Made by a program: the position numbers and the translations under genes. The notes under the pieces are model-generated. The model searched no databases and was not told where the DNA came from. It saw nothing but the letters and a program-made list of their open reading frames with translations. Of a stretch of 59,972 bases of DNA, positions 708-57,193 are shown piece by piece (the first letter of the stretch is position 1; each line of letters opens with the position of its first letter). The DNA comes from a virus (lineage: Duplodnaviria; Caudoviricetes): positions 1 to 59,972 of IMG/VR virus record IMGVR_UViG_3300043219_000134; one strand, given 5' to 3'.

Positions 708-769
708 ATTAAACCCTCCATAGGTTTAGTAAATGCCTATGCACTTACTTTTTTGTTTTCGACTATTAG

Positions 770-798
770 AGAATAATCCCTAACGCTTTGCTTGTCAA
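770..798 (-). promoter_or_regulatory. Sigma70-type promoter
   Basis: TTGACA-17 bp-TATTCT on - strand. Confidence 0.75.
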
Positions 799-1130
799 CT
801 GTTTTTATATCTTTTTATTAAAAAAGTTTTTATACCTTTTTAATCTGTTTGCTTATCGATTGATATTGATACTATTTATTAAATATTATTCCCTTCGCTA
901 TGTTTTTTTATAGTACTATATTGTAGTACTAGTTTTTATACTATATTAAATACCATAATCCGACGGGGAGCGTAAGTATTACTTTGTCCCTCAGTTGGAT
1001 TATTTTGGTTTAGGTTCATGTTAGGTTTTTGTTTCATTGGAGTTCCTTTGTCGGATAGGTGGGCTACTAGGCTCGTTTTTCGGCTGTTCACCCGTCATTA
1101 AGACAAGTATTATTATATACTGGGTCTGGG

Positions 1131-1505
1131 CTATTGTATATACTTCTTTTTGCTTTTAGTTATATTCTTTTCAAGTTTCGTTTCACAGAAGGCAATTCGC
1201 TTTTCTATAAATTGCGTGTAGTTATCCGGTCGGTCTGCATCCTTAAGGATTTTAGACAGGCGATAAGTTTCCATTAAATAGAATAAATGACTCCGGTGGT
1301 TAGAGATATACAGGCGCAGTTTCTTATTTTGAACTGAGTCTATCGAGATTAAGAACTTACCCTTGTTTTCAGTACTTTCTTTAATAACTACTGTTTGATC
1401 GGGTTTCCGGTAGTCGGTTACTATCAGGGCTATTTTTCCATTGTTCCGCTGGACTATAACGAGGTGCCAAACACCGTCAACTTTTTTAATGCTATTTAAT
1501 ATCAT
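1131..1505 (-). CDS. Hypothetical protein
   Basis: ORF; start taken at the ATGA overlap with the upstream gene (MILNSIKK). Confidence 0.7.
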   Translation of the reverse strand: MILNSIKKVDGVWHLVIVQRNNGKIALIVTDYRKPDQTVVIKESTENKGKFLISIDSVQNKKLRLYISNHRSHLFYLMETYRLSKILKDADRPDNYTQFIEKRIAFCETKLEKNITKSKKKYIQ

Positions 1506-1768
1506 GTTTTGTCTCCTAATTTGAATACGCATTGTTCCCAATTTTGATTCTTTTTTAACCAAGTATAGAGGTCTCTAGGCAAATATTTGCGTATATCAGC
1601 ATATTTCCAACCGTGCCAACCTTCTACAGTTGTTGATAAAAAAGCTGTACCAGTTTTGTCTAAGTTAACATACTTGTACCTTTTCGGTGGTAAATCTGAT
1701 TTTAGGTATTCTTCCAACTTTTTACCAATTTGTATTAACTTCGGTGGTGTATTTTTATCATAGATCAT
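1502..1768 (-). CDS. Hypothetical protein
   Basis: 88-aa ORF with AAGGA SD. Confidence 0.75.
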   Translation of the reverse strand: MIYDKNTPPKLIQIGKKLEEYLKSDLPPKRYKYVNLDKTGTAFLSTTVEGWHGWKYADIRKYLPRDLYTWLKKNQNWEQCVFKLGDKT

Positions 1769-1892
1769 ACTTGAATCCTTTGCACCATATCAGGCGCGAT
1801 ATTGTAGAGTATATAAACTATACATATAATACTTATAGTTACCCCGATAGCTAGGACTAGATTTAATACTATATTTAGCGTGTCCGGTTGTT

Positions 1893-2474
1893 TCATGACT
1901 TTATGTCTTCTAATCGGTGACTAGTCAAGGGGTGAAATCTACCAGAGGTAACATTAAATAGGAGTTCTTCACCGTCTCCGTTTTTGTGACCTACTGCCAC
2001 TACTACATGATTTTCTAATAGTCTTAAGTGACTAATTTTTATGTTGTCTTGTATTTCTATAAAGTTATCAGTACATAAACAATCACCATATGGGTAAAAC
2101 TTAAACGTTGTTAATCTACCCATATTAAAAGCATCGGAGTATATTTTGTTAAAATATAGTTCGGTTCCTAATGATTCAACTTCGGTATAGTCCGTTTTTA
2201 CTTTGAATACATGTATTATGTAATCATTTAAAAAGTTGTGTTCCTCCCCGAAGTATTCATTATAGAATATATTTTGTTTTCTTATTTGTTCGTTAAACTC
2301 TTCTACGGTATCACACTTAATTATTGATTCGTCCCCTTCACAATAACAACGTATTGAAAGATTAATTCTACTAATATTTAATAGATTGTGTCCTGCAAAT
2401 TCCGTTGTTTCATCGGAGTACAATTGTTCAAAATTGTCTTCACTATCTATAAATTTTCTAGTTACTTTTACCAT
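1893..2474 (-). CDS. Hypothetical protein
   Basis: 193-aa ORF, coupled to upstream gene. Confidence 0.75.
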   Translation of the reverse strand: MVKVTRKFIDSEDNFEQLYSDETTEFAGHNLLNISRINLSIRCYCEGDESIIKCDTVEEFNEQIRKQNIFYNEYFGEEHNFLNDYIIHVFKVKTDYTEVESLGTELYFNKIYSDAFNMGRLTTFKFYPYGDCLCTDNFIEIQDNIKISHLRLLENHVVVAVGHKNGDGEELLFNVTSGRFHPLTSHRLEDIKS

Positions 2475-2689
2475 TACAGTACCCTCACGAAATTAAATTT
2501 ACTTGTTTTATTTCTTTTCTTTTGAATAAAGGCTTTTATTTCCGCTTCTTCACCCATCCATGAACCACGGCTTGCACTAAATTGTCCTACCCATCGTGGT
2601 TGATTATTTCTGATTACATATACAACAAATATTGCTGTCTTGTATGGTCTAGTGTGTTTCTCTTTGTAAGTGTAAAAGAATTGTTCCAT
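2474..2689 (-). CDS. Hypothetical protein
   Basis: 71-aa ORF with AAGGA SD. Confidence 0.7.
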   Translation of the reverse strand: MEQFFYTYKEKHTRPYKTAIFVVYVIRNNQPRWVGQFSASRGSWMGEEAEIKAFIQKKRNKTSKFNFVRVL

Positions 2690-2733
2690 TTTTGATTCCT
2701 TTTTAGGGGAGGTTCTCCCCCGTTTGATTTAGA

Positions 2734-3255
2734 TTAGTTTTGACCTTTAAGGTCGGCTATTAAAAAGCATAAGTCTCCATAATTTATTTGTATGTAGTCT
2801 TGAAGGCTAGGGGCTTGAATTGTTGTTATTATGAATAAGTGTCCCCCGTTAGGATACCACCAGCCGTCACTTTTGACCTTTGGTTCATACACATATAAAG
2901 TAACGTCATTATCGTCATCTATTGCTACGTAGGAGTATTTTTCTGCTTGGTCAACGGTTATCTTTTCGATAAGTATATCCTTAATTTGTTGCAGTTCGGT
3001 TTTTGGTGTAACTTGCCCGTATTCATCAAAGGTTAATATCATTGAAAGAGCTATAACTTTTATCTGTGATAGGGTTTTAAAGTCGTGGGTTGTCTCGCCT
3101 AATGCATCGCCATTGATATCGAATACACGGATTGTAATACAATTCGATTCAAGTTTATTCTCTAAGTACATGACCATAACAGTGTAATCTTTGTTAAGTA
3201 CATAACCCTTTCTTGTAGTTCCGTTTAGACCTTCTGTTTCATACATTTTTTTCAT
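2734..3255 (-). CDS. Hypothetical protein
   Basis: 173-aa ORF with AAGGA SD. Confidence 0.75.
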   Translation of the reverse strand: MKKMYETEGLNGTTRKGYVLNKDYTVMVMYLENKLESNCITIRVFDINGDALGETTHDFKTLSQIKVIALSMILTFDEYGQVTPKTELQQIKDILIEKITVDQAEKYSYVAIDDDNDVTLYVYEPKVKSDGWWYPNGGHLFIITTIQAPSLQDYIQINYGDLCFLIADLKGQN

Positions 3256-3329
3256 ATTGTTTCCTTTAGGTGTCTATACACCTATTTTTTGATTCTTGAC
3301 GGGGGAGACTAGTCTCTTGACCCTTGATT

Positions 3330-3375
3330 GCTACATGGTGGAATTGCACCACCATTTAATCCTCTAGGATATAGC
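3330..3375 (-). ncRNA. tRNA-like minihelix (variant T-loop)
   Basis: GCTATA...TGGTGG-TGCAATT-CCACCA-TGTAGC on - strand, intergenic. Confidence 0.55.
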
Positions 3376-3376
3376 C

Positions 3377-3649: not shown

Positions 3650-3667
3650 TGTTACCTCTCTTTTTTA

Positions 3668-4390: not shown

Positions 4391-4433
4391 GTCTGCAATA
4401 GGGAGTCGAACCCTATACATAAACCATGCAGAT
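4391..4433 (-). ncRNA. tRNA-like minihelix
   Basis: TCTGCA...ATAGGG-TTCGACT-CCCTAT-TGCAGA on - strand, intergenic. Confidence 0.7.
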
Positions 4434-4931: not shown

Positions 4932-5540
4932 ATTGTACTTCCTTTTGTTAGCTGGTTAGTTTGTATTTGTTTAGGCTAACTCCTAACAGTACAGGCAGTA
5001 TGGGATTGTGTCTAGTATTATTTTAGGGAATTGGTGAAGTTTATTTTATTTGTGCTGTTTTCTATAGATATAAGGATATTTCTATAGTTTCTATAGGGTC
5101 TGTATTTAGGGGTGTTAGGTATAACTAATATATATATATGTTATTTTAATTATTTAATATGTTATTATAAAGTATATGCAGAAAAGCATATATAGATTGA
5201 AATATAGGTGAGTATTGGGGAAGAGAGGGGTACGAGAGGAGACGAGTCAAAGTAACATATTAAACCGAAATATGGCCAAATATGGCCATTTAGACACCCC
5301 AAATAACTATAGAAAAGGGTAGAAAGACATAGAAAGTTCTATAGACCCAGGGTTTTGACCCCCCAATGGGGGTTTTGGGTTCGGGAGGTAGAGAGACCCG
5401 TAAATCTCAATAATACAAAAAAATATATATATAAAATCAAACCAACATTCCATCCGTCACTGTGCGATTGCAAAAGCAATCCCCCTGTGGTATACTCTCT
5501 ATATAAAGAAAAACTAAAAGAAACTAAAAGGATCCAAAAT

Positions 5541-6062
5541 ATGAACGAAGACCAAAAGACAGCCCAGCGTATGAGACGCCAAACCCTAAAGGACCAAGAA
5601 ACCCGAGATTTCACCCAAGATCCATCCAGCGCCCCGTCCAACTACTTGCCCCCATCGGTAATCAACTCCATATCCTCGGTCAAACAAGCCAAGACTACCT
5701 TCGACAAATTAATCTCGCGAGAACTAATAGACATGATCGCCAATGGAGACACCCAAACTATAAAACTCAAGGCGATGGACATGTACCACAAACTATCCTC
5801 ATCTGCCCAGATGCTAATTAAACACGGCAACAACGTAGCCGCTATCGAAGCGCCAACTGGCGATACCGGAGCGACCATAAACGTAAACTTCTCCTCCCAC
5901 CTACAAAATGACGAGCCAGAGGAAACCCTCAAAATAGCCTCCAGAGACCTAGTCGCGGAAAAGAACGACAAACTATTCGCCGAATCCTTCTCCAAAAAGG
6001 ACTCCTTCTCCCCCGTCAGGAATGACGTCGAGGATGCAGAATTTGAGGTGATAAATGGATAA
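5541..6062 (+). CDS. Putative terminase small subunit
   Basis: Upstream of terL; AAGGA SD before MNEDQ; typical INVNF...EDAEFEVI tail. Confidence 0.55.
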   Translation: MNEDQKTAQRMRRQTLKDQETRDFTQDPSSAPSNYLPPSVINSISSVKQAKTTFDKLISRELIDMIANGDTQTIKLKAMDMYHKLSSSAQMLIKHGNNVAAIEAPTGDTGATINVNFSSHLQNDEPEETLKIASRDLVAEKNDKLFAESFSKKDSFSPVRNDVEDAEFEVING

Positions 6063-6184: not shown

Positions 6185-8041
6185 ATGACAAATTATAAAT
6201 TTACTAATTTTAACGAGCAAGAGAAACGGCTCTTTATAGCTGGCGGACTTGATCGAGATGATCCACGAACCTGCTGCATGATAGATATGAACGGAGACCC
6301 GATCAGGGTAATAAAGAAACCTCCAATTATACCGATGGAGATCATCCATCATCCGGATGCTCCAGCTTTTAAAGCAGAGAAAGATTCCGGTTTAATTTTC
6401 CAACAACTGATAAAAGAACTTAAGTCAAAACATACTGACTGGTCAAACCCCGAGTTCAAATCGTTGATGCAGCAAGCAGGTAAGGTTAACCTTTGGTTCT
6501 ACCTTAAATATATAGCGAGTCATTCTGGCCCCTATGGAGACGTGACTGATCATCTACATCGTGACCTGTGCAATTTTAGACAGAGTCAGCTCAAGCCCGG
6601 CGCTAGAGGAGCCGTTTTTATTCCCCGTTCTCATTATAAATCAACCGTGTTTACACATGGTGCGAATGGATGGGAACTACTAAGGAACCCCGACCTAAGA
6701 ATTGGACTAGGGTCAAATATTATTGATCGTTCGCAGGAGTTCATGAGAATGACTCAGGCACAATTTGATGATAACGAGATGATTGAGTTTCTTTACCCAG
6801 AGTACTGTCCAGAGAAATCCCTCAAGACGGGGAAGACGGTAGCCAAGCGGTGGAATAGCCGAGAGATGGTTATGCCGAATAGAAGTCGAAATATGCCTGA
6901 ACCCTCAATTAAGCCGATTGCAGTCGGTGGATCAACGGCCGGGAATCACTTTGATTTATTAGCCCTTGATGATATAATAGGAGATAAGCAATTAGATGCA
7001 GACCACATGTCAGGAACAGAAATGCAAAAGATCACCAACTGGTTTAAAAGTAGTTCTAGAACTTTACTTACTGATCCCGCTACTGGTCGGATCACTCTTG
7101 CTGCTACTAGATACGCCATCGACGATACTTATGAAGATCTCATGCTTGATTGCTGTGGTCAATTTGGGAATTGGGACGAAATTGATTATCCGATTAAAAG
7201 GAATGGTGAATGGGACATCTTTTATAAGATGGCGATTGAACGGAATGAAATTGTCTTTCCAGAGGCGATTACTCGGAACATGCTCGATAAGCTAAGGGTT
7301 GATGACTGGTGGACTTATGTGACACAGTATTTAAATAATCCTCACATAGCTGGGGCGTCAGAATGGACAGACTTTGACGTGAAAAAGTTTACTATGGACT
7401 ATGATGACAATTCGGGATATAGGATCTGGCTGAATGGCGAAGAGAAACCGCTCTATGTCGAGGATATGGATTTGCAGATTGGTATTGATCCTGCCGCCTC
7501 GGACCGAAAGGCCCGGGCTACGACTTCAAGGAGTGCAATATCAGTTCTCGCGAGAGACTCGCGTAACAGGATATTTCTTCTAGATGTACAAGCAGGTTAT
7601 TGGGGACCCAGTAAGCTATTTGATAATATGTTCCGTATCCATAAGAAATTCCGAAGGCATAACCCATCGACTCACCTTGAGCAAATGGGTGCATTCAAAC
7701 TACTTGGACCACTCCTTCGAGAGGAACAAGAAAAAAGAAATTACTACCTAAATCTGCGCGCAGTTACTAAGGGCACGGACAAAGACAATACAATACGGGC
7801 AAATATAGAACCGATACTAAATGACGGAAGACTATACGTAATAGAGAATAATTATAACCTACTAATACAAGAGGTTAAAACATTCCCTAATGGAAAGCTA
7901 AAAGACATCCTCGATTCAGTGACACTTGCTTACCAAGCATCACGAACTCCCCCGTCAGAGTTAGAACTAAGTGAAAGATATACTCGAAAGAAAGAAAGCG
8001 CTTGGAGAAGCAAAGGCAAAAACGCACTTACAGGATATTAA
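6185..8041 (+). CDS. terL: Terminase large subunit
   Basis: Walker A PRSHYKST, Walker B LALDD, nuclease motifs IGIDPA and KDILDS. Confidence 0.93.
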   Translation: MTNYKFTNFNEQEKRLFIAGGLDRDDPRTCCMIDMNGDPIRVIKKPPIIPMEIIHHPDAPAFKAEKDSGLIFQQLIKELKSKHTDWSNPEFKSLMQQAGKVNLWFYLKYIASHSGPYGDVTDHLHRDLCNFRQSQLKPGARGAVFIPRSHYKSTVFTHGANGWELLRNPDLRIGLGSNIIDRSQEFMRMTQAQFDDNEMIEFLYPEYCPEKSLKTGKTVAKRWNSREMVMPNRSRNMPEPSIKPIAVGGSTAGNHFDLLALDDIIGDKQLDADHMSGTEMQKITNWFKSSSRTLLTDPATGRITLAATRYAIDDTYEDLMLDCCGQFGNWDEIDYPIKRNGEWDIFYKMAIERNEIVFPEAITRNMLDKLRVDDWWTYVTQYLNNPHIAGASEWTDFDVKKFTMDYDDNSGYRIWLNGEEKPLYVEDMDLQIGIDPAASDRKARATTSRSAISVLARDSRNRIFLLDVQAGYWGPSKLFDNMFRIHKKFRRHNPSTHLEQMGAFKLLGPLLREEQEKRNYYLNLRAVTKGTDKDNTIRANIEPILNDGRLYVIENNYNLLIQEVKTFPNGKLKDILDSVTLAYQASRTPPSELELSERYTRKKESAWRSKGKNALTGY

Positions 8042-41026: not shown

Positions 41027-41225
41027 ACTCCTCGTCCTGTGTATGCTCTACTTCTAGAATCTCGTACTCTACTTCTAGAGTTTCGGCTTCTTCCTCTGGA
41101 CTGAGGGTTAAGTCTGGGCTGAACCCTTCTGGGTTGTAATCAACCTTTCTCCCCCGTCCGAATAATAAATATAGAGAACCAAAAAGTCCTCCCGTTAATA
41201 ATAATATAATAATAAATTGTGTCAT
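40860..41225 (-). CDS. N-terminally anchored acidic membrane protein
   Basis: N-terminal TM; overlaps next gene by 167 bp. Confidence 0.7.
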   Translation of the reverse strand: MTQFIIILLLTGGLFGSLYLLFGRGRKVDYNPEGFSPDLTLSPEEEAETLEVEYEILEVEHTQDEEFENNVTKIKEETSLMSPIDLADDINSFYGVDKPERDITVTDDKSKFDWENNPSKE

Positions 41226-42193
41226 TCTTTATCCTCCAACGCTCTTAACCCCATAATACTAGGGTTTGCTAACTGATTTACCCATGATGGGTATCCTTCA
41301 CCTAGTGTAGAGGATAACTCCAGAGTCATAGTGGGTTCTTGTGGTGTTGGGTTAACTTTTTCTGGACTACATATCATTGTTGTAGCCTTATCTGTAAAGT
41401 ATTTAGATTGGCATTCCCTAGCTTCTTCAATAGTATCGAAGCTTTTTATAATTCTACCTGTAGTCTCACAAATTTCTTTTGCTTCTAAAAGACCTAGTCC
41501 TGTGGCTTCTCTTATCGCTTTAATAAGGGGTATTTTACCATTTTCCTGATAATTAACAAATAGTAGGTCAAACTTTTCTTCTTCTTTCTTAGTTTCAATT
41601 TTAGTTGCAGATTCCGGTTCAGACATTACCGTTCCGGCTGTACTTTGAATTAGGGCTAGCTTTTGTATATGTTTTTCTTCCGAGAAGGAAAATACTTTTA
41701 GGATATCTTCTACTGATGGAACGTCCCAAAACCAAGGATGGTAAAAAGAGTATTCTCCGGTAGACACTTTACAAGTAGATACTAATCTTTTATCGCCTGT
41801 CCCTTTATAGTAAAGTGTTCCTCGTACTTCATTAGATAGCATTCCAGCTGGTCTATGCTCATTCCGTCTGGGAGAACTTGTAGATAGTCTACGAAGGATT
41901 ACTCCTACGGGTACGTCCTTGTCCTCTTTTTTATTAGTAGAGTCGTCTCCAATATCATTAGATACTCGATGATAGTCTCTGTGTTGAAGACGGAATGTTT
42001 TTGCATTAGCCATTTTTAGAAAGATGTTTGATAGGTAGCCGTTGTGACAATCTACGTTAACCTGTTGACTAACTTTATGAACCGCTTTTTGATCTGGGGT
42101 GAGTTCTTTTACCCAAGGGAACGAGTTCATGAAGTCTGTAGAGATTTTATGTAGATACTCTGCAAGTTCCCTGTACTGCTCTGTTTCTCTCAT
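41222..42193 (-). CDS. Protein with C-terminal ribosomal bL12 (L7/L12) CTD-like domain
   Basis: EEEKFDLLF...KIPLIKAIREATGLGLLEAKEICE. Confidence 0.75.
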   Translation of the reverse strand: MRETEQYRELAEYLHKISTDFMNSFPWVKELTPDQKAVHKVSQQVNVDCHNGYLSNIFLKMANAKTFRLQHRDYHRVSNDIGDDSTNKKEDKDVPVGVILRRLSTSSPRRNEHRPAGMLSNEVRGTLYYKGTGDKRLVSTCKVSTGEYSFYHPWFWDVPSVEDILKVFSFSEEKHIQKLALIQSTAGTVMSEPESATKIETKKEEEKFDLLFVNYQENGKIPLIKAIREATGLGLLEAKEICETTGRIIKSFDTIEEARECQSKYFTDKATTMICSPEKVNPTPQEPTMTLELSSTLGEGYPSWVNQLANPSIMGLRALEDKE

Positions 42194-46847: not shown

Positions 46848-47234
46848 CTATTCTCCTTCTTCAACCTCTGTTGAATGCTTGACGGGGGAGTGCCAGTCTA
46901 AAAAGCCCTCAATTGCATACCCGAGCATACTAAGTATAATTATCCCGTTAAAGACCATTATAATTGTATTTCCTATATACTCATATACAGGGTGGGTATT
47001 ATGTAACACCAAAAGTATTACAGCTGAGACTAATCCGAATAGACATTGTCTCCGTCCTATTTTTATGTCCGTCTCTTCTGGAAGAGTAAGACCATCTGTT
47101 TCTGTTGTTTCTTCCGACACTTCGGAATACAACGCTTCGTTCATTGATTTATTTGTTTGAGCTATTTCATGTTTGGAGATATGTGTCACTAATGGTATCA
47201 TCAGTATTAGTAAACTCCAAGCTATAAATATCAT
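46848..47234 (-). CDS. Membrane protein (about 3 TM)
   Basis: Hydrophobic segments; AGGAG SD. Confidence 0.7.
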   Translation of the reverse strand: MIFIAWSLLILMIPLVTHISKHEIAQTNKSMNEALYSEVSEETTETDGLTLPEETDIKIGRRQCLFGLVSAVILLVLHNTHPVYEYIGNTIIMVFNGIIILSMLGYAIEGFLDWHSPVKHSTEVEEGE

Positions 47235-48561: not shown

Positions 48562-49041
48562 CTAGTAACAAGCCTTTACAAACTTTTTAGCTTTCTCTAC
48601 AACTTTATCACAGTCGTCATCGTCTTCTAAGTCCGGTTCTTCTTTTTCAAACCAGTTAAGGAAACTGTACATTGCCTTAGCCTGTTTAGAATTGTCAAAC
48701 TTACCATATTCATTACCAACTGAATAGTGGTTCTTACCGGAACTATGACTATTTTTGTGTCCCTTTTTATCGGAACCCTTTACTTCAACTAATTTGAAAG
48801 TTTTACCACATGAACATTTAACTGTTCCATGTGTGCCGAAGTCTGCTCTAGCGAAAAGTTGTGGGAATGGTATGTTCTTTACCATTGCGTAAACGCCCTT
48901 TTCAGCGATAGAAACCAGTTGCCCTTCGACACCTTTTGAATCTTTTTTGTCTTTATAAAATGTACCTGTCTTACCTAAGTTAGATACATAACCTTTGTAG
49001 TCAAATCTGTCTTTATTATTTGAGTGTTCTCTCTTCTTCAC
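48562..49041 (-). CDS. Hypothetical protein
   Basis: 159-aa ORF, GTG start. Confidence 0.65.
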   Translation of the reverse strand: MKKREHSNNKDRFDYKGYVSNLGKTGTFYKDKKDSKGVEGQLVSIAEKGVYAMVKNIPFPQLFARADFGTHGTVKCSCGKTFKLVEVKGSDKKGHKNSHSSGKNHYSVGNEYGKFDNSKQAKAMYSFLNWFEKEEPDLEDDDDCDKVVEKAKKFVKACY

Positions 49042-50620
49042 TGTCTTTTCCTTTTAGGACAGTTCCGGTGTCTAACACAGCCATAAGCGACGCTAATTGT
49101 GCAGAGTCGTCTTTTGGTATTGATACGATTAACATGTTGTCAACGTTTTCCTGATAAACTTTCGTTGTAACTCTTAGAAGTCCCGATACGGAACCTTGCA
49201 TAGCTATAACGTCATTGTGAATGGAAATACGTTCCCCATTTTCAAAGTTAAAACTTAACCATCTATAGTCAGTCTTTACATTGTCGAGGTCGATTGGGGA
49301 TGCGAAGAACGCCATTTGTTGATTCAGATGATTCCAAACCAGTATAGTAACGTATTCTTGCTCTCTTGTTAAATTTCTGATTGCTGTATCATAACCAACA
49401 GGCTTTGAAAAACTACCCGAACGTTTGTCCGTTAATAGTTTATCAGCAACTTTTTCAACGTCTTTCACGTCTTTAAGTTTTACTGTTGGTGATGCAGTTA
49501 TTCCATCAGGAAGATCGAGGGAGATGTATCTATATCCCCTTCTTATTTTTTTGGCTTTACCATCATGACCCGTTCCGTCTATAAGGATTGTATTAACGTT
49601 TTTTCCACCTTGTAGACCGACAAAAGTTCCGGTAAGATTTAATTTCTTTTCACTCTTTTTATTCCAGCAGTGAACTGTTCTCGAATGCATATGCATCAAA
49701 GTTGGCATCATCTTATCGAACTTCTTATATAGCTCCATAAGGGTGTTTGCTCTCCTCAGACGAGCATCTGTTAAACGCTTGTCATACTCTTGGCGAGCTA
49801 CCACTACTTCTTCTGGTGTCATTTTCGAGGTGTCAGGTCTTTCAATGTCAGTAAACGGTATCTCTCTAGAATTACCATTATCATCAAAACCAAGGTTAGC
49901 GTGTAATTCAATTTTACCACCAGCAGGGTGTTCAACTGAACCATGCGACTTTAACCATCCTCTGTCTATGAAGGTTTCTACAAACCACGGCACTTCACCC
50001 TTACCCCAAGGTAATGGACTTTTTTCTTCAACTTTAGGTTCTACTTTAGACGTTGTTGTCCCGTCGCTACTATCTTTATCCGGTAAGTCAGTGGGGTTGG
50101 AACCCTCCGACTCGGTAGCCGACTCAGTCTCAGACGGATCACTGGATATGACCTCTGTCTTTTCATTCTCTCGTTCCTTAGTTGAATCTTCCGCCAGCTT
50201 ATTCTTGAAGGTATTATACTTTTCCATACCCTCTTCATAATTGCTGTCTCTTGCTTCTGCTTCAATTGCTTTTTTGCCTTTTTTCTCTTCCTGTGAATCT
50301 GTATCACATGGAGCCGGAGTCGCGGTCACAAGGGGGATGTTTTCACAACCTTTTCCCTCACAAGGCGAACTCTTTGCTCCATCTAATACCTCAGACGACT
50401 TTTCGTCTTTTGCTGTATCTACAGCCGGAGGAGTTTCGTTTTCGATTACCATTACTGGTATCTCTTTTTTCGCTTTTACTTTGTCAGAAGCCTTTTTAGA
50501 CTCGATAAGAAGGTAATGCGCATCTATTCTCTCTTGCAAGAGTCTAGCCTCATTTGTCTTACCTGCTTTTTTAAGTCGTTTGACTTCTTTTTTACTTGAT
50601 CTAACTTCTTGTTGTTTCAT
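49016..50620 (-). CDS. Hypothetical protein with disordered charged N-terminal half
   Basis: 534-aa ORF, AAGGA SD. Confidence 0.8.
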   Translation of the reverse strand: MKQQEVRSSKKEVKRLKKAGKTNEARLLQERIDAHYLLIESKKASDKVKAKKEIPVMVIENETPPAVDTAKDEKSSEVLDGAKSSPCEGKGCENIPLVTATPAPCDTDSQEEKKGKKAIEAEARDSNYEEGMEKYNTFKNKLAEDSTKERENEKTEVISSDPSETESATESEGSNPTDLPDKDSSDGTTTSKVEPKVEEKSPLPWGKGEVPWFVETFIDRGWLKSHGSVEHPAGGKIELHANLGFDDNGNSREIPFTDIERPDTSKMTPEEVVVARQEYDKRLTDARLRRANTLMELYKKFDKMMPTLMHMHSRTVHCWNKKSEKKLNLTGTFVGLQGGKNVNTILIDGTGHDGKAKKIRRGYRYISLDLPDGITASPTVKLKDVKDVEKVADKLLTDKRSGSFSKPVGYDTAIRNLTREQEYVTILVWNHLNQQMAFFASPIDLDNVKTDYRWLSFNFENGERISIHNDVIAMQGSVSGLLRVTTKVYQENVDNMLIVSIPKDDSAQLASLMAVLDTGTVLKGKDSEEERTLK

Positions 50621-50636
50621 TTTAGTTCCTTACTGT

Positions 50637-50951
50637 CTATACAGTTATTTTTAATTGATCTTTAACCAACACAGGGTCGCCATTTTTTAAAGTCTTATTT
50701 CTATACGTAACTTTAAAACCTTTTCTTCTCAGTAGTTCTGCATCTGCATCACTTAACCCTCTTACATAGAACTCGGTCTGTCCGAATCTTTTGGAGTTTT
50801 TTCTGATTTTCTTATTGAGCTTTCTTAAATCCTTACTCAATTGTCCCACTTCGGCATACTGTTTAACTTCCTCTCTAGAAACGAAGTCAGGTTCTTTACA
50901 ACCGTAGTCTAATACTACTTTTTTGTTACCGATAGGTATTTCAAATCTCAT
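50637..50951 (-). CDS. Hypothetical protein
   Basis: 104-aa ORF. Confidence 0.7.
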   Translation of the reverse strand: MRFEIPIGNKKVVLDYGCKEPDFVSREEVKQYAEVGQLSKDLRKLNKKIRKNSKRFGQTEFYVRGLSDADAELLRRKGFKVTYRNKTLKNGDPVLVKDQLKITV

Positions 50952-50954
50952 TTT

Positions 50955-52100
50955 TTAGTCCTTTAGTAGCACTTCGCTACCTAGTAAGTATGCATCCTTA
51001 GTGATTCTGAACACCTCAATTTCAGTTACATACTTGTTTATCTTCTGTATCATAGTGCTGTCATTCAGCGTATATGAACCCCAAATCCACTTCTCTTGTT
51101 TTCGCTTGTACCGGAATCTAAACTCCTCGAAAACATAGACTTTATCCGATATACTGCCGTATTGTCTTACTCTATACGTTTCAGTCGGCATCACCTCAAC
51201 GAACCCGTATCCTAAAATGTGGGGATAATCCATATCCGAAAGATAAGCCGTCGCTTTAACCTTTCTTAGACTCTCCATTAGATTAAAGGAACTATCATTT
51301 CTGATAAAAAGCTCCCTAGAGTCTTTGACCTCTTCTCGTAAGAGATCGATCTTTAGAAGACGTTCATCTATTAAAAAGATTAGTTCTTCTATCTTATTGA
51401 ATGCATATCTTAACCCGATCGTTATATCTTTTCTCTTAAAAGGGCTTCCAGTCTCACTAAGATTTTTGCGCATTCCTTTTAGCTCACTAAGAGCTACAGC
51501 CGTATTCTCTCCGATACTTAAAGTATTCACTATAGTTCCGACGATACCTATTTGATAGTCGAAGTCATAGTTTTTAAATCCTGTATTCAAGGCATCATAG
51601 TAAACTCTTAAAGTAAAACTAATATTAGATAGGCTCATACTCATTAGCATGTGTTCACTTAACCTAAAAATTGTTTGCTTCAAATAGTTTGCTTCATCAC
51701 TCTTGACGGGGGAGAATAAGCTTGTTAAATTATATAATAACTTCAACTCCGATACCATTTCTAAAAAGAACTGGGGAGTCATAGGCGAAATATGTTTAAT
51801 TTGGGAGTAAAATCTATCCTCGAAATACTTAACGCCCATATTAAATGAGAGTTTATTTATTGTGCCCTTATCATACAAGTGAATTGCTTCAATTATATGG
51901 TCTTGAACTATTATGTCGGTCTGTTTCCAATCATCCTTGTAGAAGGAGGGTAAAACGATATCGTTATTGAAACAGCCAGTAAGAACCAATAAGAATAAGG
52001 ATATAAAAAGTACGCCCAAGCTTGTTAACGAAGTCTTTAGTAGGTATTTACTTCTTGTCTTTTTGTTCAGGAGTGGATTTGTCTTTTTTGTTTTTATCAT
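50955..52100 (-). CDS. Putative lipoprotein
   Basis: Basic N-terminus, hydrophobic core, lipobox LTGC. Confidence 0.65.
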   Translation of the reverse strand: MIKTKKTNPLLNKKTRSKYLLKTSLTSLGVLFISLFLLVLTGCFNNDIVLPSFYKDDWKQTDIIVQDHIIEAIHLYDKGTINKLSFNMGVKYFEDRFYSQIKHISPMTPQFFLEMVSELKLLYNLTSLFSPVKSDEANYLKQTIFRLSEHMLMSMSLSNISFTLRVYYDALNTGFKNYDFDYQIGIVGTIVNTLSIGENTAVALSELKGMRKNLSETGSPFKRKDITIGLRYAFNKIEELIFLIDERLLKIDLLREEVKDSRELFIRNDSSFNLMESLRKVKATAYLSDMDYPHILGYGFVEVMPTETYRVRQYGSISDKVYVFEEFRFRYKRKQEKWIWGSYTLNDSTMIQKINKYVTEIEVFRITKDAYLLGSEVLLKD

Positions 52101-53121
52101 TTGATCTCCCCCTAGTATTATTCTTCGGCGGTGTACTTACGGACGGTTTAGCTTTAGGCTTTACCTTTGACTTATTAACGTCAGTCTCCCCCGTCGAGTT
52201 GGGAGACTTTTTGGTCTTTTTAGGCGCCTTAGCCGTCATTATATATTTTAGAATCTTCTTTAAGACACCACCAGCCAGAGCTTTATTGGTATCCTGTATT
52301 GAAGTTTCTTCTATAATGTCGCCCGGTTTTTGAGTAAGCTCCTTAGCCTTTAGAGCTTCAAGTTTAAGAGTCCGTCTAATGTCCTTTTTTCTCTTGATAT
52401 CATCGATAAAAAGTGAAAAGGTCATAGGCTCTTTAGGATTGATCGGTGCTGGCTCAGTTACCGGAGTATTATTTAAAGGTTTTTTCTTGTCCTCAACTAT
52501 TGGAGTAGTCTCTGGTTTTTTGTTAGTCTCTTTAGTAGAAGGTTTTTTAGGTTCTTCTTTTTTAACTGACGTTAAAGGTATGGTTTTTGTAGTTTTCGGC
52601 TTTCGGTTAAGTACTGCTTTTTGTATATTATAGAGTATAAAACAGATTATTAAACCGAAGGTAAGTAATTTACCGAATAGTGTAATTTTATCTATAGTAG
52701 ACTCTAATTTAGCGTACTTAATAACGTCAGCTTCACTAGCGACCATTGACTCGTAGAGTTGCATCTCGTATCCGGCTATTACAGATTCAAAGTGTTTAAT
52801 AGTTGCTTTGTCCTGTTTGGTTACTCGAGCGTGCTCTTTAGTTATATTTGTGTAGGCTGTTCTCTCAGTATCGATAAGATACTTTAATTCTTCATTCATT
52901 TCTTTAAAGAAGACAGCTCTTTTTTCTGATTGTTCCGCGTCTTTTTCGGAGTACCCTGAAATCTTTGCATAATGGTTTTTCATACTAATTTCATGGGTAA
53001 GTTGTTCCTTCAAGATATTATTCTCTATTGACGTAATATCCATCATAGAGAATACTTGCGCATGACTAGCCCAAGTGATACTTAGAGCTAATAAAATAAT
53101 GTACATAAATTTCTTCATCAT
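52048..53121 (-). CDS. Exported/membrane protein
   Basis: Signal peptide (SHA-Q), coiled coil, TM, Lys/Pro-rich tail. Confidence 0.7.
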   Translation of the reverse strand: MMKKFMYIILLALSITWASHAQVFSMMDITSIENNILKEQLTHEISMKNHYAKISGYSEKDAEQSEKRAVFFKEMNEELKYLIDTERTAYTNITKEHARVTKQDKATIKHFESVIAGYEMQLYESMVASEADVIKYAKLESTIDKITLFGKLLTFGLIICFILYNIQKAVLNRKPKTTKTIPLTSVKKEEPKKPSTKETNKKPETTPIVEDKKKPLNNTPVTEPAPINPKEPMTFSLFIDDIKRKKDIRRTLKLEALKAKELTQKPGDIIEETSIQDTNKALAGGVLKKILKYIMTAKAPKKTKKSPNSTGETDVNKSKVKPKAKPSVSTPPKNNTRGRSNDKNKKDKSTPEQKDKK

Positions 53122-53170
53122 ATTGTCCTTTAGTAGCCTATGCTACTCGTTGCGTAATCTCTCTAGATTA

Positions 53171-53662
53171 CTAATCTTTATAGTACTCGAGGCGTTCACC
53201 AAACTTGAACTTATCTAACTCGTCGTCAGTCAGTTCGGTCATGAGTGAACCTTCAATACGTTCCATAGAAGTATTTAGTAGAACATATCTAACACCTTTT
53301 GAAGCGTCAAACTTCATTTCTATGTAGATACCTACTTGGTCGTTGTTGTCAGACATTCGATACATCTTGTGCGGTACAAAACATGAGCCTTGTGGCTTAA
53401 CATTGTCCATTTCTACGAAGATGTAATCTACCATTACTGGTATATCAGAATACATGGTTGTTACCGCGAATCTCATATCATCTGTTAATACGGCATTGAT
53501 CTCTTTTCCGTGACCACCTATAACAACTTGAAGGAACGCTTGATTCTGTTCACACAGATTTAACGCTCCCTTGTCGTCTTCTAGATACTTATACAGTAAA
53601 CTTACTGCATAATCGTCTTTGATGGTGATTTTCACCTTTTGTACTGTTTCTTCTTTGCTCAT
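53171..53662 (-). CDS. Hypothetical protein
   Basis: 163-aa ORF with AGGAGG SD. Confidence 0.8.
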   Translation of the reverse strand: MSKEETVQKVKITIKDDYAVSLLYKYLEDDKGALNLCEQNQAFLQVVIGGHGKEINAVLTDDMRFAVTTMYSDIPVMVDYIFVEMDNVKPQGSCFVPHKMYRMSDNNDQVGIYIEMKFDASKGVRYVLLNTSMERIEGSLMTELTDDELDKFKFGERLEYYKD

Positions 53663-53742
53663 TCTTGAGCCTCCTAAATAATTGGATTTAGTCGCCTATG
53701 CAACTAAAGAAAGAGAGCCTGTCGTCGAAAACTGCTCTCTAA

Positions 53743-53789
53743 ACTACTAGTGGGGACTCGAACCCCATGTACTCCACCGTTCTAGTAGT
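53743..53789 (-). ncRNA. tRNA-like minihelix
   Basis: ACTACTAG...TGGGG-TTCGAGT-CCCCA-CTAGTAGT. Confidence 0.7.
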
Positions 53790-53841: not shown

Positions 53842-53882
53842 GGAAAAGGCGGAATCGAACCGCCGATTAAAAACCTTATTCC
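53842..53882 (-). ncRNA. tRNA-like minihelix
   Basis: GGAATA...GGCGG-TTCGATT-CCGCC-TTTTCC. Confidence 0.65.
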
Positions 53883-53883: not shown

Positions 53884-54306
53884 TTAAATCTTTTTTACGA
53901 GTGTAATTAAAAAAGTTGAGCTACCAAACCATTGTTCCTCAAAATTCCTTGCTTCTTTTTCTGTAGCAAAGGTTTTTATTGTTGAAGGGACTGCTTCAAC
54001 AAGATCTTTTGCTTCTTTAAGACCAAGACCAGTTGCTCCACGAATAACTTTAAGTGTAGGAATTATCATTCCATCAGTGAACTTTACAAATCTCACAGCC
54101 CACTCTTCTCTAAAAGTTGGGTTGTCTACTGCGGGTAAGTCTTCCTCTTTAATTACTTTACGAGTTAACGTAATGTCGTACTCTGAACTAAGTAGTTCTG
54201 CGTATTTTAAGGTGCTTTTTAAAGATACACAAAATGTAGCTATAGAGTCCAGTTCAGTTCTGTCTCTAAGTTTTACTAATTCATCTTTTATTTCGTTTGT
54301 TGTCAT
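53884..54306 (-). CDS. Protein with ribosomal bL12 (L7/L12) CTD-like domain
   Basis: IPTLKVIRGATGLGLKEAKDLVEAVPSTIK...EKEA. Confidence 0.8.
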   Translation of the reverse strand: MTTNEIKDELVKLRDRTELDSIATFCVSLKSTLKYAELLSSEYDITLTRKVIKEEDLPAVDNPTFREEWAVRFVKFTDGMIIPTLKVIRGATGLGLKEAKDLVEAVPSTIKTFATEKEARNFEEQWFGSSTFLITLVKKI

Positions 54307-54803
54307 TTTCGCTCCTCGAAAAAGCCCTTCTCTAAGGACTTGTATTCAGCTAAAATGTACTTTTCAGCAGTACCCAATGCCCGGACTCGATAAGCCCACG
54401 CAACTGTCTCCCCAAGCTGTTTCCTAGTCAGCCTAGTTGCTTTGTCAGCTTGTATAAGAGATAGTATATATATAGGCTCGAATTGGTAATACTTACTTAG
54501 CATTATTACATAACGCATAGTCTCGTCGGTTATTAGTATTTCCCCATAGATAGGATCGTGTATTATTGTATCTACGTAGGGTTTTTTCATTATAGGCACA
54601 GGTGTAAAGATTGTACCTATCCGTTTATCTTCATACTTAGTCTTAAGTACGTCATAGTAAGGGTCATTTAGGACTCGACCCTTGTCTAAATCCCAAGCCA
54701 ATACCGCAATTGAATAGTACTCCTTAGTAATTCTATTCTCTGGATATGGACTTGCCGATAGTAGTAAAAAGACTATACCTAAAAAGGTCAATACTCGTTT
54801 CAT
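54303..54803 (-). CDS. Exported protein
   Basis: MKRVLTFLGIVFLLLSA signal peptide; GGAGG SD. Confidence 0.7.
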   Translation of the reverse strand: MKRVLTFLGIVFLLLSASPYPENRITKEYYSIAVLAWDLDKGRVLNDPYYDVLKTKYEDKRIGTIFTPVPIMKKPYVDTIIHDPIYGEILITDETMRYVIMLSKYYQFEPIYILSLIQADKATRLTRKQLGETVAWAYRVRALGTAEKYILAEYKSLEKGFFEERK

Positions 54804-54967
54804 AGTCCCTCCGTTATCACTACGAGCATCAGTAAGATTACGTAAACCTCTCCAAGAATAAAAAAACATCTAATCATTGGATCATTGGTTTCGACAAAGG
54901 ATACTATAGCCAAAACAGTGAAGGCTGCCCCACATAACATTATGAAAATAAATAAAGCTATTAACAT
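54800..54967 (-). CDS. Small membrane protein
   Basis: 55 aa, two TM; AAGGAG SD. Confidence 0.65.
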   Translation of the reverse strand: MLIALFIFIMLCGAAFTVLAIVSFVETNDPMIRCFFILGEVYVILLMLVVITEGL

Positions 54968-54999
54968 ATTTACTCCTTTGATGCCTATGCACCAAGTAA

Positions 55000-55063
55000 A
55001 GCTAGTCGAGGGACTCGAACCCTGCAAGCAAACACCATATAAGCTCTCAACCAGAAACTAACT
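55000..55063 (-). ncRNA. tRNA-like minihelix
   Basis: AGTTAGTT...AGGG-TTCGAGT-CCCT-C-GACTAGCT. Confidence 0.6.
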
Positions 55064-55146
55064 GTGGGATATCTCCCACATAGATAGTAGTAAAAACAGT
55101 GACTTTTCGTCTAAGGTAGCCACCACCTGATTTTTATTTAGTACAT

Positions 55147-55467
55147 CTAAGATATACTGTGCCAAGACCTAATAAAGTTTAAGTCTCGCCTGTTTATCGA
55201 TACACGTTGATGGGGTTCAACCCCACTAGGCACGATTTCGCTACCCTCCGTAAAGCCTAAGCCCTTACTTAATAGGTACAGATGAATATAATATGATCTT
55301 ATCGATTTTATTATATATTCCTTACTCGTCGTCGGACTCCTTGCCCGATAGAGAATCACGGTGCAAACCTCGGTTTGTGTTCCATGACGTATTACCTCTT
55401 CTTCCAGGGATGTGTTGCAAGACACAATCAGAAAAGATATTAAAAGAGTTATTAGTAGTTTTAGCAT
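55147..55467 (-). CDS. Putative lipoprotein
   Basis: MLKLLITLLISFLIVSC; AAGGAGG SD. Confidence 0.65.
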   Translation of the reverse strand: MLKLLITLLISFLIVSCNTSLEEEVIRHGTQTEVCTVILYRARSPTTSKEYIIKSIRSYYIHLYLLSKGLGFTEGSEIVPSGVEPHQRVSINRRDLNFIRSWHSIS

Positions 55468-55483
55468 AACTACCTCCTTTATG

Positions 55484-55525
55484 GAGAAAATGGGAATCGA
55501 ACCCAAACTTATGTACCAACTTCTC
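55484..55525 (-). ncRNA. tRNA-like minihelix
   Basis: GAGAAG...TGGG-TTCGATT-CCCA-TTTTCTC. Confidence 0.65.
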
Positions 55526-55715
55526 TAAATGCAAACTTAAGCAATTCTATAGATACTACGTAACCTTCATAACCTTCTGCGCTTATATATACAGTAGTAG
55601 TTTCTTCAATGCTTATTATTTTGTCTATACTCATTTTAGTCCCTTTAGGAACATCTTCTCGTCTTGCTCTAGACGAGTCTGGTTCTAATACCATGTCATA
55701 TTTTGCTTCAAACAT
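55509..55715 (-). CDS. Hypothetical protein
   Basis: 68-aa ORF with AAGGAG SD. Confidence 0.7.
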   Translation of the reverse strand: MFEAKYDMVLEPDSSRARREDVPKGTKMSIDKIISIEETTTVYISAEGYEGYVVSIELLKFAFREVGT

Positions 55716-55731
55716 TATTTACTCCTTTATT

Positions 55732-55774
55732 AGTCAAGGGGGAGTCGAACCCCCACTAGATCACCAGATTAACT
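55732..55774 (-). ncRNA. tRNA-like minihelix
   Basis: AGTTAA...GGGGG-TTCGACT-CCCCC-TTGACT. Confidence 0.7.
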
Positions 55775-56094
55775 TAAGTATAGAACTCAATACCTTCTGG
55801 AAGGTCTAAGCCCATTGCTTTACCAGTTGCAATGATAACTTTGAACAACTCGTTCAAATCATCCGTTGCAAACTCTTCGGTTAGCTCCGGTGTAAGAAGT
55901 GCCTTCGGTGCGAATCTAAAAGCAAGGTTTCTCACTTCTTTTTCGTTCTGAAACTTCACCTCGATAGGTGCATTGTCCCCTAACTGAACTGTAACAATTG
56001 CACTGCAAGCGTTGTTACTTAAAACTTTCTTTGCAGGGATTGATGAATTACCACCACCAATTGGCTCTCTTGTATTTAATACTCTAATTTCCAT
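55774..56094 (-). CDS. Hypothetical protein
   Basis: 106-aa ORF with AGGAG SD. Confidence 0.75.
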   Translation of the reverse strand: MEIRVLNTREPIGGGNSSIPAKKVLSNNACSAIVTVQLGDNAPIEVKFQNEKEVRNLAFRFAPKALLTPELTEEFATDDLNELFKVIIATGKAMGLDLPEGIEFYT

Positions 56095-56102
56095 TTTGTC
56101 TC

Positions 56103-56600
56103 CTATGACGGGTTATTTAATATTCTTGAAGGGTTAAATCCCTTTAAGTGCTGTACTGCTACTGGGATACCATCGGGTCTAGTAATGGCATGCCAGATTT
56201 TTCTAAACAAGATGTAATCTTCTTCCGAGAGCATCCTATTTGTTGTTAATTCATGTAACCTTTTAAGGTACAGTCCTCGACGGATCATATTTTCTTTTAA
56301 CGGGCATGAACCATGCTCCTGATATCTCTTATCGTATGTAACTAGTTTATCTAGTACATACTCGTTGCCTTTTTCCCTGTCTTGCCGTAGTAGACCAATT
56401 TCAGTTATGGCATGACCAGCACTACTGTATATACCAAAGAGCCAATCTATTGACCAGTAGTTTAAAAAGCCTGTCTTATAGATTTTAAGCTCCTCTGCAT
56501 TAGAGAGCCTTTTCTCGTTGGTTACATTTATACGGACTTTCCAATCCTCAGAAGGGGCGCAAGTATATCCGTAAGTAAATCTATTTTTACCGGGTTGCAT
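56103..56600 (-). CDS. Hypothetical protein
   Basis: 165-aa ORF with AGGAG SD. Confidence 0.75.
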   Translation of the reverse strand: MQPGKNRFTYGYTCAPSEDWKVRINVTNEKRLSNAEELKIYKTGFLNYWSIDWLFGIYSSAGHAITEIGLLRQDREKGNEYVLDKLVTYDKRYQEHGSCPLKENMIRRGLYLKRLHELTTNRMLSEEDYILFRKIWHAITRPDGIPVAVQHLKGFNPSRILNNPS

Positions 56601-56602
56601 AT

Positions 56603-57151
56603 TTACTCCTTTCTCATTCGGGCAATCTCGATGTCGATTACGGAAGCTAGTTCCGTTTCGGAATTAGTAAGTATCGTAAAGGACTTACTACGGGATCGGT
56701 CTTCGTCCTGATCGTTATGGAAGGTGTAAAAGTTACCCTCTGGATAGATCACTAAGACCGGACATTTCCAACGGGGGAGATCCATTGCATCGACTATGTG
56801 CATTTTCTCTTTAAAACCAGACATTTCTAGGTGGGTCTGTAATAGGCGCACCATTGCATTATGAAAGTGCAGATTGATAATGTCTGCTCCGGCATAATAA
56901 ATATTGATGGTCTTTTTTTCCGAGATATTAAGTTCTTTTACTACTTGGACTAATTCTTCTTCGGTAGCATTCTCGACACGCTCTTTAAGACGGAACTTCT
57001 CTAAGTCATCTTCATCTTTTTGTTTTTTGTCAAAGCTTTTTTTAAGCATCGACATTACCCAACCTATAATAAATATTACTAACCCCCAGAATAATGCAAC
57101 GTAGAAATGACTTCCTAGTGACCATTCATGGACTTTTAATAAAATTTCCAT
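56603..57151 (-). CDS. Membrane-anchored protein, possible degenerate thioredoxin-like ferredoxin domain
   Basis: N-terminal TM; CPVLVIYPEGNFY. Confidence 0.55.
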   Translation of the reverse strand: MEILLKVHEWSLGSHFYVALFWGLVIFIIGWVMSMLKKSFDKKQKDEDDLEKFRLKERVENATEEELVQVVKELNISEKKTINIYYAGADIINLHFHNAMVRLLQTHLEMSGFKEKMHIVDAMDLPRWKCPVLVIYPEGNFYTFHNDQDEDRSRSKSFTILTNSETELASVIDIEIARMRKE

Positions 57152-57193
57152 AAGTTCTCCTTTTATTTTTTATTTCCTGTCTATACAGGATAA

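Follow-up and report, generated by a model that had tools for sequence, protein, structure and literature searches.

A covarying hairpin with a constrained apex precedes ribosome-binding sites of putative early genes in an uncultured phage lineage

The stretch of DNA analysed here, which we call the window, is the whole of IMG/VR record IMGVR_UViG_3300043219_000134 (59,972 b), from a virus of the Caudoviricetes. On its minus strand, seven small hairpins with an AUAG tetraloop occur just upstream of the Shine-Dalgarno (SD) sequences of genes that strand, promoters and gene content suggest to be early. We found that these hairpins form a real, clade-specific RNA motif of a known general kind, which is apparently undescribed. 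Their stems covary, relatives carry further members at orthologous and at new positions, and the feature common to all of them is not the AUAG loop but an apex in which a G-C pair lies beneath a closing pair of any Watson-Crick type and the four-base loop ends in AG. Some of the hairpins stand directly beside structures that appear to be remnants of tRNAs.

A preliminary description of this DNA had listed the seven hairpins. We recovered each of them at its place, and three (728-749, 53687-53708 and 54978-54995) proved longer than first given. All features below are on the minus strand unless stated otherwise, and each hairpin is named by its lower coordinate. Two have stems of 9 bp: AGUAAGUGC-AUAG-GCAUUUACU (728-749), with one G.U pair, ends 8 nt before the GGAGG of gene 81-707, and UUUAGUUGC-AUAG-GCGACUAAA (53687-53708), with one U.G pair, ends 11 nt before the AGGAGG of gene 53171-53662. 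Stems of 7 bp are formed by UAGGUGU-AUAG-ACACCUA (3267-3284), which abuts the AAGGA of gene 2734-3255, and by UUGGUGC-AUAG-GCAUCAA (54978-54995), which has one G.U pair and abuts the AGGAG of gene 54800-54967. With 6 bp each, AGUAGC-AUAG-GCUACU (53132-53147) abuts the SD of gene 52048-53121, and UCCUGU-AUAG-ACAGGA (57175-57190) lies 1-3 nt after a tRNA-like minihelix and 12 nt before the AAGGAG of gene 56603-57151. The shortest, ACUGU-AUAG-ACAGU (50632-50645; 5 bp, predicted -3.0 kcal/mol), abuts the SD of gene 49016-50620 and is located inside the upstream reading frame, where the UAG of its loop is the stop codon of gene 50637-50951. Hairpin 728 is also the one that lies close to a recognizable promoter, a sigma-70-like TTGACA-17-TATTCT element at 770-798 whose predicted start is about 13 nt upstream of the hairpin.

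The position of the element relative to the downstream gene is narrowly confined. The gap from the end of the hairpin to the ATG measures 10, 10, 11, 11, 20, 23 and 24 nt in the window, bearing out the closeness to start codons that had been noted before. The SD follows within 0-1 nt in four of the seven hairpins, and within 0-12 nt at all seven sites and at the eight sites from relatives described below. It is left outside every hairpin of the window, and the hairpins do not mask it. Both the SD and its spacer differ among sites (AAGGA, GGAGG, AGGAGG, at 4-9 nt), and the conserved part lies upstream of the SD. Our own gene list contains 17 minus-strand gaps of at least 25 nt, six of which hold an AUAG hairpin; the seventh hairpin, 50632, occupies a gap of 16 nt. 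Because the element keeps its place beside the SD, even where this falls within an upstream frame, we link it to translation initiation of the downstream gene.

We then asked how often such hairpins arise by chance. The sequence GYATAGRC has nine copies on the minus strand and two on the plus strand. The hairpins account for seven of the nine, and the remaining two (55623 and 41851) lie in open reading frames (ORFs) and have no stem. When a stem of at least 5 bp is required, seven copies are found on the minus strand and none on the plus strand, compared with a mean of 0.10 and a maximum of 2 in 300 dinucleotide-preserving shuffles. With a covariance model derived from the seven, these hairpins score 24.9-29.9 bits and are the only ones recovered; the next best match in the window, on either strand, reaches 15.8 bits. 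Hence such hairpins are not equally frequent inside ORFs or on the antisense strand.

The stems themselves indicate on which strand, and in which form, the element acts. Paired cells make up 93.9% of the aligned stems compared with 68.1% in shuffles, and the covariation score of 0.81 (0.245 in shuffles) was reached by none of 500 shuffles. Two-sided changes that keep pairing occur at five of the seven stem positions, and the pairing is lost when the partner strand is slid out of register. The closing pair is C-G in four hairpins and U-A in three, and the pair beneath it is G-C in all seven. Three hairpins (728, 53687 and 54978) contain G.U pairs, whose plus-strand equivalents are A.C mismatches. 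The GY-AUAG-RC consensus of the preliminary description, with its C-G or U-A closing pairs and its sense-only G-U pairs, holds for the seven hairpins of the window. The covarying stems together with the G.U pairs support the view that the element works as RNA on the sense strand.

An Rfam cmscan of the whole window with E values up to 1 gave no match at the hairpins; the sole related matches were three weak T-arm matches to the tmRNA model (12-16 bits, compared with a gathering score of 47). A full-text literature search for 'AUAG tetraloop' also returned nothing, in line with the earlier statement that the element belongs to no named family.

To follow the motif outside the window, we used relatives obtained from a large-terminase search of IMG/VR. 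The three contigs, L130 (12.8 kb), L131 (5.8 kb) and L132 (18.1 kb), share 65-98% identity with the window across syntenic blocks. Other searches added none: GenBank phages gave no DNA match, a polymerase protein search gave distant matches (at most 33% identity, and 28-29% at best in IMG/VR), a 534-aa protein of the window had no relatives in IMG/VR, alignments of two early proteins yielded no contigs beyond those already found, and two metagenome scans yielded no relatives.

Four sites of the window could be compared with their orthologues. At the site of hairpin 728, the hairpin is replaced in L130 by AUAGCUUGA-AGAG-UCAAGCUAU and in L132 by UUGCCUUGA-AGAG-UCAAGGCAA, both of 9 bp, with the promoter, the A-rich 5' flank and the SD nearly unchanged around the swapped hairpin. 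The two replacements have the apical CUUGA-AGAG-UCAAG in common, and their basal pairs differ by compensatory changes. Elsewhere, the 3267 site of L130 retains the AUAG loop on a new stem (GCGC/GCGC), the 57175 site of L132 has an identical stem with the loop UGAG, and the 54978 site of L132 reads GAUGC-GUAG-GCAUC, in which the G.U pair has become A-U and UGC-(A/G)UAG-GCA is kept. L132 also carries hairpins before genes that have no counterpart in the window, one with an AUAG loop (6323-6344) and two with AGAG loops (6774-6795 and 5761-5782; loop positions 6335, 6786 and 5773, respectively), and the tag is therefore portable. Within about 9 kb of L132 the loops are GA-AGAG-UC three times and AUAG, GUAG and UGAG once each, compared with AUAG in seven of seven in the window.

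These orthologous AGAG, UGAG and GUAG loops show that a shared AUAG loop, which the preliminary description had treated as the defining feature, does not define the family. We aligned 15 sequences from three genomes, seven from the window and eight from relatives. Positions G8, A12, G13 and C15 are fixed in 15 of 15, that is, the last two loop bases are AG (an invariance owed in part to the way sites were selected, as set out below) and the pair under the closing pair is G-C. The expectation that the loop would be conserved in relatives holds for its AG half and fails for its first two bases. The closing pair is C-G in seven sequences, A-U in four and U-A in four, and every loop is a 4-nt NKAG. 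The covariation score rises to 0.954 (0.200 in shuffles, reached by none of 500), with 92.4% of cells paired compared with 54.8%; six of the seven stem pairs vary on both sides, with 39 cells showing double changes. Judged from this alignment, the actual motif is G-N[NKAG]N'-C, with a loop that drifts among AUAG, GUAG, UGAG and AGAG.

We also counted all hairpins of the class G-N[NKAG]N-C that have a stem of 5 bp or more and precede both an SD and an ORF of 40 or more codons. The totals are seven in the 60 kb of the window and five in the 18 kb of L132. In 1.38 Mb of unrelated loci there are six, or 0.26 per 60 kb, and this control is conservative because the set was partly fetched with GYATAGRC in the search pattern. 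Three further hairpins of the window have AGAG loops: UAAUCU-AGAG-AGAUUA (53155-53170), 7 nt upstream of hairpin 53132, and two (54322-54341 and 46860-46875) located just before an SD, one of them that of a bL12-like gene. They lack the G-C pair of the family and were not counted as members; they may be related or due to chance.

An IMG/VR scan for a T-loop followed by GYATAGRC mostly returned real tRNA clusters. One unrelated locus with 51% G+C, L032 (IMGVR_UViG_3300033068_000411, about 5445-5466, minus strand), shows a tRNA, UUUGU-AUAG-ACAAA, AGGAG and ATG in succession. As a single case, this layout is within chance for the scan that found it. The pattern GNNNAGNC alone was too degenerate to be informative.

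The structures beside some hairpins are best understood as reduced tRNAs. The T-arm pattern GGTTCGAnTCC has five minus-strand copies and one plus-strand copy (control pattern, 0), and a relaxed pattern finds seven on the minus strand. Six of these seven T-arms have acceptor-like stems of 6-9 bp in tRNA-like placement, with a linker of 10-36 nt replacing the D and anticodon arms. ARAGORN called no tRNA in the window. The minihelix at 57192-57261, before hairpin 57175, joins an acceptor-like stem to the T-arm GAGGGG-UUCGACU-CCCCUU; its orthologue in L132 retains the T-arm and has a completely different acceptor stem. At 55002-55054, a 9-bp acceptor-like stem and the T-arm AGGG-UUCGAGU-CCCU end 4-6 nt before hairpin 54978-54995, depending on the acceptor pairing taken. 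The minihelix at 53743-53789 has an 8-bp acceptor stem (ACUACUAG/CUAGUAGU), a 14-nt linker and the T-arm UGGGG-UUCGAGU-CCCCA, and is followed by a hairpin at 53712-53740 and then by AUAG hairpin 53687. These three agree with the earlier claim that four AUAG hairpins follow a tRNA-like minihelix; the fourth, 3267, is preceded only by a T-arm-shaped hairpin without the T-loop sequence.

The other minihelices have no AUAG hairpin. The one at 55732-55774 (T-arm GGGGG-UUCGACU-CCCCC) lies directly before the SD of gene 55509-55715, and the one at 55485-55526, which is a decayed tRNA, immediately precedes that of gene 55147-55467. The latter aligns with an intact tRNA-Cys(GCA) at 611-683 of L132, with the T-arm and 3' flank in common and an internal deletion in the window. 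At 4392-4432 a minihelix with a 6-bp acceptor stem, a 10-nt linker and a 6-bp T-stem is identical in L130, where it falls in the most highly conserved part of the alignment (98% over 107 nt). For the lone T-arm GGCGG-UUCGAUU-CCGCC (53848-53864) no acceptor stem was found. From their sequences, we consider the minihelices to be tRNA-derived and under selection, and tRNA genes in this clade appear to have been whittled down to acceptor/T-arm stubs, retained at their sites in front of the SD.

Hairpins 57175, 54978 and L132 119-140 begin 1-6 nt past the 3' strand of a minihelix acceptor stem. If RNase Z cut after the discriminator base, an overhang of 1-6 nt would be left at these three sites. 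In plant mitochondria, t-elements have been proposed to steer RNase Z and/or RNase P to the cuts by which mRNA ends are formed (PMC1920247). By sequence, the minihelices have the structure expected of a t-element, an acceptor-type stem on a T-arm with the T-loop sequence, and like the t-elements of that account they (and not the AUAG hairpins) are acceptor/T-arm structures placed between coding regions. Unlike those t-elements, they lie in an early operon of a phage, and one of them is plainly the relic of a tRNA-Cys.

Early genes are mosaic among the relatives. The DNA of the window is present in two DNA-type marine-sediment sequencing runs. A relative in one run shows about 1,640 differences across 20 kb; none of the 40 differences listed falls in a hairpin. 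Contigs of a second marine-sediment run hint that whole small early genes are replaced or missing between conserved intergenic modules at 54785-55131, 55777-56101, 57190-57508 and 58936-59284. Contig joints seem to lie by these modules (54785/54965, 55022/55131 and 57190/57508), each seen in single contigs of low likeness, and one of them may fall in a 9-nt repeat, GTTGCTTTA, common to the 3' ends of two minihelices.

We hypothesize that the hairpin is a tag for a trans-acting factor, which would control the access of ribosomes to early genes or the fate of their messages, and that the hairpin may also serve as a 5'-terminal structure after tRNA-type processing. We favor this reading tentatively, judging its chances to be somewhat short of even. 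Our model suggests that the seven are members of a family of mRNA hairpins that is linked to gene starts and specific to the clade, with a covarying stem of 5-9 bp and any Watson-Crick closing pair, and that each would serve a minus-strand early gene whose translation must start afresh. A single trans-acting factor, most probably an early protein of the phage, would recognize the apical G-N[NKAG]N'-C in the mRNA. By binding beside the SD, this factor would set ribosome access, and hence message life, for early accessory genes that can be swapped. The long early transcript would be cut either at the minihelices, by RNase P or by RNase Z acting behind the discriminator base, or in an upstream A-rich tract, and the hairpin would then become the 5'-terminal structure of the downstream message. 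Factor binding, the effect on translation and minihelix cleavage are steps that we infer. That the apex would be read by its sequence, and not through structure alone, is suggested by the invariance of four apical positions on top of a stem that covaries freely, and also by the uniform AUAG of the window compared with the mostly GA-AGAG-UC apices of L132. Loops that are uniform within a genome and different between genomes are as expected from co-evolution with a genome-specific reader.

Several observations weigh against this model. No RNA-binding, RegA-like or N-like domain was found with Pfam in 60 minus-strand proteins, and none with PHROGs in the eight minus-strand proteins among the ten scanned. 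Other fresh starts hold a minihelix or an unrelated hairpin in the place of the tag (gaps 1769-1892, 2690-2733, 55468-55508 and 55716-55773), which would fit a generic structural role. Because it begins about 13 nt from the predicted start, hairpin 728 would not be 5'-terminal unless the A-tract were cut. In addition, the sites in relatives came either from hits of the covariance model or from a census reporting loops with a final AG, or stems of at least 6 bp, and thus the invariance of AG is partly a selection effect; the G-C pair was not a criterion for the four relatives' sites picked by the census. Finally, loop positions 1-2 vary at three of the four orthologous sites, and any reader must therefore tolerate AU, GU, UG and AG. 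For the conserved hairpin-tagged protein encoded at 81-707, the predicted structure had a mean pLDDT of 35 and was unusable.

The main rival to a specific reader is a purely cis-acting structural module, in which a stable helix just 5' of the SD would block 5'-to-3' or 5'-end-dependent decay of processed messages and prevent the SD from pairing with upstream sequence brought in by cassette exchange. We regard this as possible, though on the unlikely side. It would account for the minihelices and unrelated hairpins that occupy the same position at other fresh starts, and for the hairpins that, at three window sites and one in L132, begin 1-6 nt after the 3' end of a minihelix. The hairpins never include the SD, so masking is not at issue, and the 728 site swapped its whole hairpin yet kept a 9-bp stem with a tetraloop. 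However, a structural role leaves the four invariant apical positions (15/15) and the limitation of loops to NKAG unexplained, as well as the uniform AUAG of the window compared with the mostly AGAG loops of L132. Moreover, hairpin 50632, with 5 bp and -3.0 kcal/mol in a translated region, would be a poor barrier to decay, and hairpin 728 lies away from the predicted 5' end. A protein operator and a 5' stabilizer remain the two best readings, and they are inseparable on sequence alone. The conserved, single-stranded apical bases, their position between cistrons by the SD, and a transcript with tRNA-type processing signals would also suit a sequence- and structure-specific endoribonuclease of phage or host that cuts in or beside the loop, separating cistrons or inactivating early messages. 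T4 RegB inactivates early messages in such a manner, by cutting at GGAG. Yet the sole nuclease candidate recognized in the window is a PD-(D/E)XK protein, typical of recombination modules, and a second cut 1-6 nt from a minihelix cut would be redundant; we consider this role distinctly unlikely.

Explanations that invoke the opposite strand or the DNA fare worse. Read on the plus strand, the A-run upstream of a hairpin becomes a U-run, and the hairpins could then be intrinsic terminators of antisense transcription. A T-rich plus-strand tail is indeed present in three of the seven window hairpins (728, 3267 and 50632) and in several hairpins of relatives, and 3267-3284 was called terminator-like on the plus strand. 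This reading is nevertheless highly improbable, as four of the seven have no T-run, the G.U pairs become A.C mismatches on that strand, and both the fixed spacing from the SD and the conservation of AG and G-C would be left without an explanation. On the sense strand, no U-run as needed for an intrinsic terminator follows any of the seven. We give equally little credence to a DNA-level signal, whether a protein operator, an N4-type hairpin promoter or a linker for recombinational exchange of cassettes. The mosaic early genes of the relatives, and weakly also the contig joints beside modules in one run, would point that way; but the stems vary with pairing kept, their wobble pairs would be mismatches on the template strand, four shared bases are too few for homologous exchange, and no virion RNA polymerase was recognized among the ORFs other than the largest (1566 aa). 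We rejected N4-type DNA hairpin promoters in particular because the wobble pairs lie on the wrong strand. Mimicry of CRISPR repeats was also rejected, as the stems are not conserved, and so was a stop-codon role for the loop UAG, which is a stop at one site only, the AGAG loops being free of stops.

Among known systems, the closest experimental parallel to a tag read by a factor appears to be the operator of gene 43 in phages T4 and RB69. It is a hairpin upstream of and overlapping the ribosome-binding site, its loop is conserved between phages and the 3' loop bases (UAAC, UAAA) matter most, and a second phage protein, RegA, is described as repressing about 30 early messages (PMC3014915). Like the operators of that account, the window hairpins are RNA sites beside the ribosome-binding site, with sequence determinants kept across related phages (G8, A12, G13 and C15, at relatives' sites partly selected by loop). 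Unlike the single autoregulatory gp43 site described there, the window has at least seven structured sites with a common apical motif; unlike the unstructured, A/U-rich RegA sites, its sites are structured, and no RegA-like protein was found among the minus-strand proteins scanned.

The nearest described genome-wide signals associated with starts are the SAS and ESAS elements of cluster K mycobacteriophages. According to that work, the SAS is a fixed, asymmetric 13-nt sequence that contains the SD and lies 3-7 nt before the start, with a consensus that differs between subclusters and a function given there as not known; for the ESAS inverted repeats, the authors found RNA pairing unsupported and favored DNA binding (PMC3203893). 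The window hairpins resemble the SAS, as there described, in being a repeated signal of one orientation shortly before the starts of non-structural genes of different families. They differ from both elements in that their stem covaries and has G.U pairs and the SD lies outside.

Two comparisons concern mRNA hairpins of phages and bacteria more generally. The 5' stabilizing stem-loops of E. coli ompA, B. subtilis ermC and the SP82 leaders lie at or near the 5' end of a message, upstream of the SD, and guard against 5'-end-dependent decay. The window hairpins likewise lie upstream of the SD and would fit messages released by processing; unlike these stabilizers, they have a constrained loop and G-C pair. 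Lambda boxB is a hairpin with a GNRA-like pentaloop that occurs, with boxA, at one or two sites per early operon, behind the promoter and ahead of terminators, and is read by the phage protein N. The window elements share with boxB that they are small phage mRNA hairpins with a conserved loop, and differ in having an NKAG tetraloop and seven copies, each at an SD, of which only 728 is near a promoter. The preliminary description had offered translation control, boxB-like antitermination or 5' stabilization as possible roles. A sense-strand RNA tied to the ribosome-binding sites of early genes fits our results, whereas boxB-like antitermination appears unlikely given seven copies at SDs and a loop that is not GNRA-like. 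No N-like Pfam domain was found in the 60 proteins, but N proteins are small and fast-diverging. Repeated intergenic structures that punctuate the polycistronic transcript or flank exchangeable genes are also found in phage early regions as the RNase III sites of T7 and the PeSLs of T4-type phages. RNase III sites need a duplex of about 20 bp, and PeSLs are terminator-plus-promoter units; the window hairpins, unlike both, have 5-9 bp, no U-run and no promoter.

Phage early regions contain many small genes without known function that are exchanged between relatives, and apart from T4, T7 and lambda little is understood of how these are coordinately expressed. A tag of this sort, moving together with the ribosome-binding site, with four apical bases fixed across relatives and a location beside tRNA-derived signals, would be a compact case of post-transcriptional organization in phages that have not been cultured. 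Should its reader protein be identified, hairpin and protein could be used as an orthogonal pair for translational control.

The genome around the hairpins has a G+C content of 38% and is divided between the strands. Plus-strand genes span 6.2-31.1 kb and include the large terminase and the head protease. Minus-strand genes run from 6.0 kb downward, through the record ends, to 31.4 kb. They encode a family A DNA polymerase, a DUF3987 helicase-primase-like protein, an AAA_24 ATPase, the PD-(D/E)XK nuclease, a GroES-like Cpn10 (32131-32460), a MazG-type pyrophosphohydrolase (32667-33167), two proteins with a bL12 C-terminal domain and many small proteins without a family. Strong sigma-70-like promoters on this strand lie at 58928-58900, 58803-58775 and 798-770, and the last of these, upstream of hairpin 728, is itself kept in L130 and L132. 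The window ends in an imperfect terminal direct repeat of 187 nt (1-187 and 59786-59972, 184/187 identical), although its record classes it as linear without end repeats.

The two bL12-domain proteins, at 41222-42193 (323 aa) and 53884-54306 (140 aa), carry the bL12 hinge and C-terminal factor-binding domain, and the N-terminal part of neither had a match. The bL12-like protein matches many phyla, through its C-terminal domain alone, and points to no particular host. One could speculate that hairpins, minihelices and these two proteins form one phage-specific early-expression system, in which host tRNA-processing enzymes would cut the long early transcript into single messages and a phage protein would read the hairpin as a flag to recruit or exclude ribosomes, with loop specificity co-evolving between related phages; we regard so complete a scheme as a long shot.

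Directly downstream of the two strongest sigma-70-like promoters, 1.4 kb of the minus strand (57490-58910) has no convincing ORF. This stretch is partly kept in L132 (65-79%) with no consistent reading frame, had no Rfam match and ends in a degenerate T-arm-like element (57509-57535); it could represent a long structured leader, or else encode a non-coding RNA.

Finally, the 10-mer CTCCCCCGTC has 24 exact copies in the window (15 plus, 9 minus), compared with 0.02 expected from shuffles. Copies occur in coding and intergenic DNA alike (for example at 3298-3307 on the minus strand and at 7947-7956 and 52186-52195 on the plus strand). The CCCCGTC core, and usually the whole 10-mer, is retained at orthologous places in L130 and L132, with a weak consensus in the flanks. 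It looks like a DNA-level signal of some kind, such as a nick, Chi-like or modification site or a promoter.

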